The notes beneath the pieces are model-generated. The model was not told the origin of the DNA and searched no databases. It saw only the letters and a program-made list of their open reading frames with translations. DNA of 64,000 nucleotides from Escherichia coli (GTDB lineage Bacteria; Pseudomonadota; Gammaproteobacteria; Enterobacterales; Enterobacteriaceae): NCBI RefSeq assembly GCF_003334305.1, contig NZ_QOWS01000010.1; one strand, written 5' to 3'. This document shows, in pieces, positions 15,659-18,947 of the stretch (the stretch's first letter is position 1; every line of letters begins with the position of its first letter). Both the position numbers and the translations under genes were made by a program.

Positions 15659-16184
15659 AGAGATTACTCTGCCCATAGTCCTCTCCTGTAATTATCAGTC
15701 TGATATTACTTATCCTGGGCAAAAACAGTTTGATTGCGGTAACCCTGTTATCGATAAATTTGTACGCGCATCGCTAAAGAAAAGTGTGCGTAATAGCGAC
15801 TGTGCGGCTAAAGCACTTATTGACAGACAAAGTGGTGAACTGATCGGCATCTGTACTTTTACGGCATATTCGCTGGAAAAACAACGCGTTTCTGGCGTCC
15901 TTCAGGGTTCACAACCTTCAGAAATTGGTGTTGTCAGATTAGTCATGTTGGGGGTAGCACGGAAGTATCAAAAGCGGGGCTTTGGTCAGGACCTACTATG
16001 TGATTTTTTTGAACATGTAAAAATAATTCACCAGGCATTACCAATTAAAGGGGTTTATCTTGATGCTGACCCTGCCGCCATTAATTTTTATGCTCGTCTC
16101 GGCTTTGTTCAGCTTTCAGCGACACCAAATGCTTTTGGTGCTGTACCTATGTTTTTGGCGATTCAGCATATTCTCGCGGCTTAG
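15642..16184 (+). CDS. Putative GNAT-family N-acetyltransferase toxin (TacT/AtaT/ItaT/KacT-like)
   Basis: 180-aa ORF with N-terminal FDCG motif (KQFDCGNPVIDKF), acetyl-CoA motif QKRGFGQ (Q-x-x-G-x-G) and C-terminal NFYARLGF typical of GNAT toxins; SD AAGGA ~10 nt upstream. Confidence 0.85.
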   Translation: MVDKHEEITLPIVLSCNYQSDITYPGQKQFDCGNPVIDKFVRASLKKSVRNSDCAAKALIDRQSGELIGICTFTAYSLEKQRVSGVLQGSQPSEIGVVRLVMLGVARKYQKRGFGQDLLCDFFEHVKIIHQALPIKGVYLDADPAAINFYARLGFVQLSATPNAFGAVPMFLAIQHILAA

Positions 16185-16239
16185 ATTATTATCGCCACCC
16201 GCCAGGGCAAGTTTTGCCTCAGCCGGGGGCTGAGCAGCG

Positions 16240-17175
16240 TTACCACTTTTGTTCAATTGCCCCCGCTTTCAGCAACTCCACATCCTTGCCGTTAATGGTT
16301 GCCGTTGCGGCAACGATTGTGGTCCTTACAGTTGCACAAGATTTTCGCTCAAATTCCGGTTTATAAAGAATAAGAGACGAATTACTGGTAAATGAACCAA
16401 ATAGGTAATCAGTAAAGCTAATATTCAGCCGGTTTAAACCGAAAGGCGCGAAGCCAACCGTTTGGTTAATCTCCTTACCGGATGGGCGACGAATGCTGAA
16501 TGTCACGCGAAGATTGGCCACTTCGCCTAATTTATTGGTGGTGGCGAAGAGGCTATCCATGCAGGAAAAACCTTTATCTAAAAAATTATCTCGCATCCCA
16601 GAACGGGTAACCGTAATCACGGGTAACGTATCGTCAACCGTTTTTCTGTCAATCATGTCTTTTCGACAAGTAGCCAGAAAGTTTTCTGGGCCACCATAAA
16701 TGTGGACACCTTTATCAAGATATTCCTTCGCTTTCTTACAATCTACCTCAACATACTGACCATTGGCGTACATAATGCCCAACCTGGACCATGCTAAATT
16801 CACACCGTGCTGCGCGGCCTGATTAAATAGTGCATACGCTTTGGCATAATCCACCCGCACCTGCTCACCGTCGTAGTAGATACCCCCCAGCGCTAACGGA
16901 GCTTCTCTGTCACCTTGTTTAGCCGCTAACTCGAACCATTTAATCGCTTCCTGAACATCAGGTTTGGTATCATAACGAGGCTGATAATATTCCCAGCCTA
17001 ACAGGCTCTGCGCGTCGATATCTCCCGATTCAGCCATTTTATGCAGTGTATTTATAACATCGGGAGCAGGTTTACCACCGTATATGCTGTCATACAATTC
17101 ATGCGCTTTCTCGCTGGCCACCACGCTTGGTGAAACTATCAGCATTACAGAAAATAATATTCTTTTAGTTAACAT
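16240..17175 (-). CDS. Secreted Sel1-like repeat (SLR/TPR-like) protein with uncharacterised ~150-aa C-terminal domain
   Basis: Start taken at MLTKRILFSVMLIVSPSVVASEKA (signal-peptide-like) within the 331-aa ORF-track frame; Sel1 motifs (AIKWFELAAKQGDREAPLALGGIYYDGEQVRVDYAKAYALFNQAAQHGVNLAWSRLGIMYANGQ); C-terminal ~150 aa has no motif I recognise. Confidence 0.8.
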   Translation of the reverse strand: MLTKRILFSVMLIVSPSVVASEKAHELYDSIYGGKPAPDVINTLHKMAESGDIDAQSLLGWEYYQPRYDTKPDVQEAIKWFELAAKQGDREAPLALGGIYYDGEQVRVDYAKAYALFNQAAQHGVNLAWSRLGIMYANGQYVEVDCKKAKEYLDKGVHIYGGPENFLATCRKDMIDRKTVDDTLPVITVTRSGMRDNFLDKGFSCMDSLFATTNKLGEVANLRVTFSIRRPSGKEINQTVGFAPFGLNRLNISFTDYLFGSFTSNSSLILYKPEFERKSCATVRTTIVAATATINGKDVELLKAGAIEQKW

Positions 17176-17235
17176 GTATACCTTTATGTCCTCACTGTCA
17201 TATATTTCCATAATAATTAACCACCAAACATCCAT

Positions 17236-17576
17236 TTAATGAATAAATACAGTGCCATAAAGGTCCAAGTAATAAGCACACATTTAGCCTGAAACATTAT
17301 CATCCATGTCACCAAATCGTTTATTTAGTGAGATAAAACTAGCATATTCGTAAGATAAAAAATGCACATAGCAATCAAGAAATGATATTATTACTTTTTT
17401 GATGTAAAACTATTTAGTTTTAAAATTCATTTTTTCAACATATAGAGCATTCATTTTATGAATGCAAAAAAACATACCTGACACACAAATTACTCTCCTC
17501 TGTAATATTTTCTCATTAACACTCTGTTTACCCAACATGCGCTCCGCACTACACTATGTGGGCATTTTTTTAAGGG
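17236..17576. other. Very AT-rich intergenic tract (right flank of the islet; likely promoter region for the Sel1 gene and yajR)
   Basis: ~340 bp dominated by A/T runs, with perfect palindrome GCATTCAT-TTT-ATGAATGC at ~17447-17465. Confidence 0.5.
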
Positions 17577-17582
17577 GTGGTA

Positions 17583-18947
17583 ATGAACGATTATAAAATG
17601 ACGCCAGGTGAGAGGCGCGCGACCTGGGGTTTAGGGACCGTATTCTCGTTGCGCATGCTGGGCATGTTTATGGTTCTGCCGGTTCTGACCACGTACGGCA
17701 TGGCTCTGCAAGGTGCCAGCGAAGCATTAATCGGTATTGCCATTGGTATTTATGGTCTGACTCAGGCCGTTTTTCAGATTCCGTTTGGCCTGCTTTCCGA
17801 CCGCATTGGTCGCAAACCATTAATTGTCGGTGGGCTGGCGGTGTTTGCCGCCGGTAGCGTTATCGCTGCGCTTTCCGACTCCATCTGGGGAATTATTCTG
17901 GGCCGGGCGCTACAAGGCTCTGGAGCAATTGCCGCCGCCGTTATGGCGCTGCTTTCCGATCTCACGCGCGAACAAAACCGCACCAAAGCGATGGCGTTTA
18001 TCGGCGTGAGCTTTGGCATTACCTTTGCTATTGCGATGGTGCTTGGCCCGATCATCACTCACAAACTTGGGCTGCACGCGCTGTTCTGGATGATCGCTAT
18101 TCTGGCAACGACCGGCATTGCGTTGACCATTTGGGTTGTGCCCAACAGTAGCACTCACGTACTTAATCGTGAGTCCGGAATGGTGAAAGGCAGTTTCAGT
18201 AAAGTGCTGGCGGAACCGCGGCTGCTGAAACTCAACTTTGGCATTATGTGTCTGCATATTTTGCTGATGTCGACGTTTGTTGCCCTGCCCGGACAACTGG
18301 CTGATGCAGGGTTCCCGGCGGCTGAACACTGGAAGGTCTATCTGGCGACAATGCTAATCGCCTTTGGCTCGGTCGTGCCTTTCATTATCTACGCTGAAGT
18401 TAAGCGCAAAATGAAGCAAGTCTTTGTCTTCTGCGTCGGGTTGATCGTGGTTGCGGAAATTGTGTTGTGGAACGCGCAAACGCAGTTCTGGCAACTGGTG
18501 GTCGGCGTGCAGCTTTTCTTTGTGGCGTTTAATTTGATGGAAGCCCTCCTGCCCTCACTTATCAGTAAAGAGTCGCCAGCAGGTTACAAAGGTACGGCGA
18601 TGGGTGTTTACTCCACCAGCCAGTTTCTTGGCGTGGCGATTGGCGGTTCGCTGGGCGGCTGGATTGACGGCATGTTTGACGGTCAGGGGGTATTTCTCGC
18701 TGGCGCAATGCTGGCCGCAGTGTGGCTGACAGTCGCCAGTACCATGAAAGAACCGCCGTATGTCAGCAGTTTGCGCATTGAAATCCCGGCGAACATTGCC
18801 GCAAACGAGGCGTTAAAAGTGCGTTTGCTAGAAACTGAAGGCATCAAAGAAGTGTTGATTGCAGAAGAAGAACATTCAGCTTATGTGAAAATCGACAGCA
18901 AAGTGACGAATCGCTTTGAGATAGAACAGGCAATTCGTCAGGCATAA
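17583..18947 (+). CDS. yajR: MFS transporter YajR
   Basis: Start at MNDYKMTPGERRATWGLGTVFSLRMLGMFMVLPVL (454 aa); ORF-track frame begins 2 codons earlier at GTG. Confidence 0.95.
   Translation: MNDYKMTPGERRATWGLGTVFSLRMLGMFMVLPVLTTYGMALQGASEALIGIAIGIYGLTQAVFQIPFGLLSDRIGRKPLIVGGLAVFAAGSVIAALSDSIWGIILGRALQGSGAIAAAVMALLSDLTREQNRTKAMAFIGVSFGITFAIAMVLGPIITHKLGLHALFWMIAILATTGIALTIWVVPNSSTHVLNRESGMVKGSFSKVLAEPRLLKLNFGIMCLHILLMSTFVALPGQLADAGFPAAEHWKVYLATMLIAFGSVVPFIIYAEVKRKMKQVFVFCVGLIVVAEIVLWNAQTQFWQLVVGVQLFFVAFNLMEALLPSLISKESPAGYKGTAMGVYSTSQFLGVAIGGSLGGWIDGMFDGQGVFLAGAMLAAVWLTVASTMKEPPYVSSLRIEIPANIAANEALKVRLLETEGIKEVLIAEEEHSAYVKIDSKVTNRFEIEQAIRQA

Follow-up and report, generated by a model that had tools for sequence, protein, structure and literature searches.

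The AT-rich sel1B–yajR tract of Escherichia coli as a probable divergent control region of yajR and an old Sel1 operon

The closest described counterparts of the locus analysed here are H-NS-bound accessory regulatory regions such as proU, bgl and the LEE and SPI promoters, the variable hotspot spacers of Enterobacteriaceae, and operator palindromes in divergent promoters, among them the LysR-type T-N11-A sites and the TacA sites of TacAT modules. A stretch of 315 bp with a GC content of about 27% is the kind of DNA that H-NS binds, and the protein is said to nucleate with high affinity at the motif tCGATAAATT. We analysed the tract between the Sel1-repeat gene sel1B and the core gene yajR in a stretch of Escherichia coli DNA of 64,000 nucleotides, which as a whole is called the window. 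Similar to the H-NS-bound regions, a tract of ~27% GC lies upstream of an accessory secreted-protein gene in a genome of 51% GC, and it is divergent with a core gene. Its AT-rich DNA is extended and far below average in GC content, with 27.6% over 315 bp against 51.3% for the window. H-NS binding to the tract is plausible as a prediction from this AT-richness. In contrast to the described regions, the H-NS 10-mer is absent within 17176-17582 at up to one mismatch and is not enriched. The locus furthermore looks old, and nearby core spacers are similarly AT-rich. The sole perfect copy of the 10-mer, TCGATAAATT, in the window is located at 15751-15760, inside tacT.

Like other variable hotspot spacers of Enterobacteriaceae, the cyoE–yajR spacer contains cargo that differs by genus, with Sel1 genes with or without TacAT in Escherichia and Salmonella. 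The difference is that here the promoter-proximal part of the core gene yajR seems to have been swapped, too. With the operator palindromes the tract shares an interrupted dyad in a divergent intergenic region. Our literature search returned nothing on the cyoE–yajR islet, no transcription start, ChIP or reporter data for the locus, no mapped yajR transcription start site, and neither ChIP nor expression data on H-NS at yajR or at this locus.

The tract and the Sel1 locus

According to the open reading frames and the RefSeq annotation of BL21 and other strains, the gene-free tract between sel1B and yajR comprises 17176-17582 (407 bp, 30.7% GC). A first-pass annotation of the window had reported the AT-rich span as 17236-17582. 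This span is AT-rich with 30.5% GC compared to 51.3% for all 64,000 nt, but its left edge should be placed at 17176. The Sel1 protein starts with the ATG at 17175 (311 aa, MLTKRILF...) in RefSeq and in all homologues, which have 308-313 aa, and the gene-free tract therefore begins at 17176. An in-frame upstream ATG at 17235 would extend Sel1 by 20 codons, and this frame is not maintained in relatives. The features of the locus are the following.

Ends at 15162: cyoE, with a terminator at 15178-15201
15203..17490, no strand: segment without K-12 counterpart (tacA, tacT, sel1B and most of the AT-rich tract), from alignments to K-12; right limit approximate
15347-15658, plus strand: tacA
15642-16184, plus strand: tacT, GNAT toxin
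16240..17175, minus strand: sel1B, Sel1-repeat protein of 311 aa with a signal-peptide-like N-terminus, probably served by the left half of the tract
17176..17582, no strand: sel1B–yajR intergenic tract, probable divergent control region, from open reading frames, RefSeq annotation and composition
17176..17205 (limits approximate), minus strand: putative remnant of the sel1A 3' end, sel1A–sel1B intercistronic spacer and sel1B ribosome-binding site, from by-eye comparison with E4694
17225..17340, minus strand: best-conserved islet-specific stretch in the conservation profile of six Escherichia lineages, candidate core promoter and leader of the sel1 operon
ATG at 17583, plus strand: yajR

The tract had also been described as by far the most AT-rich DNA of the window. 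The minimum-GC stretch of 347 bp in all 64 kb (17146-17492, 26.5%) does overlap the tract, and the left part of the tract, about 17176-17490 (315 bp), has 27.6% GC. The description is overstated nevertheless, as two core-genome spacers come close and are likewise among the most AT-rich stretches of the window: ddlA–iraP (62601-62947) with 28.8% GC and ampG–cyoA (9902-10248) with 31.7% GC. Since these core promoter regions are comparable, AT-richness at this level is no mark of foreign DNA in the window, and the earlier use of AT-richness as diagnostic of foreign DNA was probably wrong.

The islet between cyoE and yajR is carried by 1368 of 5426 complete E. coli genomes (25%), including BL21(DE3) and HS. 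In K-12 the islet is absent and the cyoE–yajR spacer measures 148 bp. The flanks are nearly identical to K-12 up to the spacer: the left flank differs at 14 of 1603 bp, lastly at 14961, and the right flank at 2 of 1618 bp. All close Sel1 homologues are located between cyoE and yajR. The Sel1 locus occupies the same site in E. albertii (tract of 410 bp, 85% identical), in Escherichia sp. MOD1-EC7003 (tract 87% identical), in the cryptic lineages Escherichia sp. E4694 and E4930, in the divergent E. coli strain 100248, where sel1 is a pseudogene, and in a metagenomic relative from another genus, whose cyoE and yajR are 85% and 78% identical. E4694, E4930 and the metagenomic locus contain two genes, sel1A (478-499 aa) and, after about 10-22 bp, sel1B. 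Salmonella carries two Sel1 genes divergent from yajR, and its 503-aa protein is 42% identical over the full length to Sel1A of E4694.

Between the E. coli tract and the yajR–sel1A spacer of E4694 and E4930, identity is 76% across an alignment of ~390 bp. The ~30 bp directly before the sel1B start codon look, by eye, like the sel1A 3' end and the intercistronic spacer of E4694. This alignment and the 3' remnant of sel1A point to the tract as the control region of an old sel1A–sel1B operon minus sel1A. The left part of the tract (about 17176-17490) would then be the former upstream region of the two-gene operon, which now abuts sel1B because sel1A appears to have been deleted in E. coli, and a short remnant of the sel1A 3' end would persist beside sel1B. 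The right ~90 bp would represent a separate yajR promoter allele that travels with the Sel1 locus and shares its TTTACC and TACACT hexamers with the K-12 allele. From these sequence comparisons we conclude that the tract is probably the divergent control region of yajR and of an old, variably retained Sel1 operon, with a distinct yajR promoter allele in its right ~90 bp. Our confidence here covers what the tract is and the assignment of the yajR promoter; the possible operator role of the palindrome described below is graded apart from it. In functional terms, the tract is a real but ordinary feature: an AT-rich region from which an uncharacterised accessory operon and the neighbouring core gene yajR would be controlled divergently.

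On the sel1 side, E4694 and E4930 have the equivalent of the best-conserved stretch 17225-17340 at a distance of 20-130 nt ahead of the sel1A start codon, which is consistent with a core promoter and leader. No consensus sigma-70 promoter could be assigned to sel1, as the scan returned 7 promoter-like sites where 6.2 are expected.

The remaining cargo of the site is variable. Between sel1B and cyoE, MOD1-EC7003 contains an M20 amidohydrolase truncated at its 5' end and the C-terminal piece of a LysR-family regulator instead of TacAT, and E. albertii has a 325-aa protein without Pfam match in the TacAT place. Further cargo in the cyoE–yajR spacer comprises two DUF1493 genes (one Citrobacter), hok/gef (Kluyvera) or nothing at all (C. 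farmeri, K-12). This variety of cargo across genera suggests that the cyoE–yajR site is a long-standing cargo hotspot. It is more likely that the Sel1 locus is old and has been repeatedly lost or replaced than that it was newly inserted, where an ancestral locus that was later lost is deduced from the distribution alone and repeated recombinational exchange would give the same pattern. For annotation, the logic changes accordingly: the "islet" of E. coli would be what decay has left of an old Sel1 operon, together with a TacAT module.

Decay of the islet can be observed within E. coli. A sel1B pseudogene with a frameshift or internal stop is annotated in several strains, and Shigella sonnei contains partial copies; sel1B is thus decaying in parts of the species. 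In TR01, an E. coli labelled O157:H7, position 15238 is joined to 17514, leaving a 2275-bp deletion scar of the islet in which the yajR promoter of the islet type is retained along with a single TacA-operator-like palindrome. No more than 2 of 5426 genomes contain a match to the greater part of this scar spacer, of which TR01 alone was examined, and the scar is a rare secondary loss of the islet. Other O157:H7 genomes show the K-12-type spacer.

The yajR promoter and its alleles

The right end of the tract contains the two features that matter for yajR.

17501..17522, plus strand: A/T-rich conserved element TGTAATATTTTCTCATTAACAC, about -61 to -40 of the predicted yajR start
17527..17555, plus strand: predicted sigma-70 core promoter of yajR, with -35 TTTACC (17527-17532), a 17-bp spacer and -10 TACACT (17550-17555); start predicted near 17562

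The promoter was derived from an alignment of yajR upstream sequences from E. coli (both alleles), E. albertii, the genus of the metagenomic relative, Salmonella, two Citrobacter and Kluyvera. All 8 sequences, from five genera, have TTTACCC and CCGC..TACACTA at the same spacing, and the spacer and the leader diverge. It is this invariance of hexamers and spacing amid divergence that places the yajR sigma-70 promoter at 17527-17555 with a start near 17562. TTTACC-N17-TACACT matches the sigma-70 consensus in 8 of 12 positions. The expectation of the first-pass annotation that the tract houses a promoter of yajR is in agreement with this footprinted, predicted promoter. Directly upstream, the TGTAATATTTTCTCATTAACAC element is invariant in six Escherichia lineages, recognisable in the metagenomic relative, Salmonella and Kluyvera, and partly so in K-12. 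From its sequence and position it may be UP-element-like or an activator site. At the edge of this element, at about 17491-17499, a tandem duplication of 9 bp (TCTGTAATA) is present in BL21(DE3) and some further strains.

Comparison with K-12 shows how far the two E. coli alleles have diverged. Identity of the entire tract with the K-12 sequence upstream of yajR had been named as the outcome that would refute the first-pass reading; the tract is not that K-12 region, in which the spacer is 148 bp in length. In local alignments against shuffled sequences, homology to the K-12 spacer is significant for ~17525-17570 only (P<1/2000), and 17440-17511 gives P=0.33. A homology of the palindrome region to K-12 AGCATTAGAAACATA, tempting by eye, was rejected on this latter value, which is no better than that of shuffles. 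Within the homologous part, the window and K-12 share TTTACC, the 17-bp spacer, TACACT and the Shine-Dalgarno/ATG region, and little else. From the -35 hexamer to the ATG, the following identities are obtained.

Window and K-12: 62%
Window and E. albertii: 84%
Window and the genus of the metagenomic relative: 77%
K-12 and Citrobacter: 88%
Salmonella and Kluyvera: 88%

The earlier suggestion that control sequences of yajR differ between strains with and without the islet is borne out by the 62% identity. The islet-type proximal yajR sequence is restricted to 1374 genomes that contain the islet or an islet scar. Three classes of yajR promoter can be distinguished that are incongruent with the species tree, which suggests that the promoter has been exchanged together with the cargo. 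With 88% identity to Citrobacter in the promoter, it is the K-12 allele that looks like the foreign one.

Two further scenarios can be formulated, both of which we regard as rather unlikely. In the first, cassette-like exchange of the spacer would have taken the yajR promoter along, and the "empty" K-12 allele would be a Citrobacter-like import that replaced an ancestral Sel1 locus. In the second, the palindrome would be the operator of a regulator that coordinates the secreted Sel1 protein with yajR. If cassette exchange were true, E. coli strains would bear two deeply diverged yajR promoters, possibly with different regulation. The difference between the yajR promoters of K-12 and BL21 is relevant where yajR is used as an integration site and for comparisons of expression between B and K-12 strains. 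The biological value is modest: the spacer of core genes serves as a cargo hotspot, and the neighbouring core promoter appears to be swapped with the cargo.

The palindrome between the two promoter zones

The middle of the tract contains the palindrome and two neighbouring features.

17405..17422, no strand: second perfect 8-bp-arm palindrome TAAAACTA-TT-TAGTTTTA, nearly all A/T, not conserved
17447..17465, no strand: palindrome GCATTCAT-TTT-ATGAATGC with perfect 8-bp arms
17466..17472, plus strand: A7 run directly after the palindrome, strain-variable in length and sequence

The palindrome followed by an A-run, as first described, was confirmed exactly at 17447-17465, with AAAAAAA at 17466-17472. 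Its centre is located ~106 bp upstream of the predicted yajR start and 281 bp upstream of the sel1B ATG. It falls into the less conserved middle of the tract between the two promoter zones and is separated by over 100 bp from the conserved zone near sel1. It is present as a single copy per genome and in the window, and an identical 40-mer is found in 1211 of 1351 genomes. Nothing shows a specific function of the palindrome. Given its place in the poorly conserved spacer between two promoters, it would be either an operator or a neutral by-product of AT-rich sequence.

The palindrome may quite possibly be an inverted repeat without function, arisen by chance or drifting neutrally in low-complexity AT-rich DNA. 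Of composition-matched random tracts of 407 bp, 13-14% contain one or more perfect inverted repeats with 8-bp arms and a loop of 0-10 nt, and the second, non-conserved palindrome is found 25 bp away. In E4694 and E4930, which are lineages with an intact sel1A–sel1B operon, the palindrome is degenerate (TATTCTT-GCC-ATTAATA). It matches none of the transcription-factor motifs compared with it and no Rfam family, and the window and the genome contain no other copy. What does not fit drift is the conservation of the arms: all 16 of 16 arm positions are invariant in E. coli, E. albertii and MOD1-EC7003, three lineages with 13-15% tract divergence, and the loop (TTT or TTA) and both flanks have changed. 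Variable columns make up 23% of the tract in this trio, and an equal degree of conservation is reached by 9% of 19-column windows only. The chance that all 16 arm columns are invariant is ~0.014 (the range for arm conservation is P~0.014-0.09). In E. coli 100248, where the arms are not intact, one change from C:G to T:A is compensatory and likewise speaks for constraint. The half-site hexamer ATTCAT/ATGAAT furthermore occurs 4 times in the tract versus 0.8 expected (P=0.008), in a test that was made post hoc.

The conservation of the arms would be accounted for if the palindrome were an operator for a dimeric DNA-binding protein in the lineage of E. coli and E. albertii, a reading that we put forward tentatively and with some doubt. 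The palindrome contains T-N11-A by construction and has, in common with operator palindromes, arms that are conserved in E. coli, E. albertii and MOD1-EC7003 around a variable loop. It differs from them in the lack of an adjacent regulator gene and in being degenerate in relatives with an intact operon, and it lies further upstream than LysR-type sites typically do. Our search for a cognate regulator found no regulator gene adjacent to the palindrome and no further sites in the window or per genome. Of the motifs compared, those of ArgR, Fur, MetR, RcsB, EvgA, PhoP, Fis and IHF, none fits in half-site orientation or spacing. Taken together, the locus is only mildly unusual, in its yajR promoter classes that cross genera against the tree and in the modest conservation of the palindrome arms.

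The islet contains other palindromes of operator type. Just upstream of tacA, the interval 15220-15293 holds a promoter close to consensus (TTGACA, 17 bp, TAAATT) with a 19-bp palindrome on either side, ATACGGCTAATAACCGTAT and ATACGGTTGATAGCCGTAT, the two being nearly identical. From their sequence and arrangement the pair ATACGGCTAATAACCGTAT/ATACGGTTGATAGCCGTAT look like TacA operators for autoregulation of the toxin–antitoxin pair. These TacA-type operators, at 15220-15238 and 15275-15293, differ in sequence from the palindrome of the tract, and the palindrome was rejected as a TacA operator on this difference from ATACGGCTAATAACCGTAT.

Recent insertion and RNA structure

The first-pass annotation had taken the tract for the edge of horizontally acquired DNA at an insertion junction. 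A horizontally acquired islet, inserted between cyoE and yajR with an AT-rich foreign edge that is silenced by H-NS and with rewired yajR regulation, seems improbable to us. The presence/absence polymorphism at a fixed site, with 25% of E. coli genomes as carriers, is what insertion predicts, but the same site is occupied in the sister species and, in orthologous form, in Salmonella. A recent junction is contradicted by the Sel1 locus at this site in E. albertii, in three cryptic Escherichia lineages and in another genus, together with the 42% identity of the Salmonella protein to Sel1A. The divergence of the locus between lineages equals or exceeds that of the flanking core genes. The GC content of the islet (42.7% overall, 27.6% in the tract) is below that of the flanks (53%), but core spacers elsewhere in the window come close to the tract in AT content. 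A toxin–antitoxin pair is typical accessory cargo. The only islet genes are tacA, tacT and sel1B, and at the borders we found no direct repeats or target-site duplications, no tRNA, no integrase or transposase and no other mobility genes. Insertion as the direction of the event is probably wrong. Carriers and non-carriers differ in the yajR promoter allele, but the Citrobacter-like promoter is that of the K-12 type. The link of the tract to the islet held up, with only ~17525-17570 demonstrably homologous to the K-12 spacer. An old Sel1 operon with its divergent control region accordingly remains the preferred reading of the locus.

Highly improbable is an RNA hairpin on either strand, as intrinsic terminator or as leader structure: the palindrome has RNA folding energies of -8.7 kcal/mol (plus strand, z-score -4.0) and -8.4 kcal/mol (minus strand, z-score -3.0), it is among the terminator-like sites that a permissive scan gives for the minus strand, and it has in common with Rho-independent terminators a short stable hairpin beside a homopolymer run, but this run is on the wrong side on either strand (A7 and no U after the plus-strand stem; on the minus strand a U7 run 5' of the stem and UCUAUAUGUU 3' of it), the GC-poor 8-bp stem holds 3 G:C pairs only, Rfam gives no match, and no gene ends at the palindrome, as sel1B (minus) and yajR (plus) both point away. 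The palindrome as an intrinsic terminator was rejected on the position of the U-tract and because it is not at the 3' end of a transcription unit.

Other RNA-level and coding candidates were rejected as well. A terminator-like hairpin with T7 over the yajR -10 (17543-17570), considered as an insulator against read-through, has a non-significant z-score of -0.7 and is not conserved in E. albertii. For a putative structured leader RNA upstream of sel1, the RNAalifold consensus of six lineages has -7.3 kcal/mol over 130 nt with negligible covariation. The Rfam scan of 15000-18000 at E≤1 returned no match. A 44-aa open reading frame at 17462-17596, which starts in the right arm of the palindrome, is frameshifted in other strains by an indel in the A-run.

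Two records show minor variants of the region. Strain GB089 (NZ_CP013663.1), otherwise 100% identical, contains an IS3-family element within the cyoE–yajR region. One record labelled as a plasmid bears the tract together with the palindrome, and may be a misassigned replicon or an assembly error.
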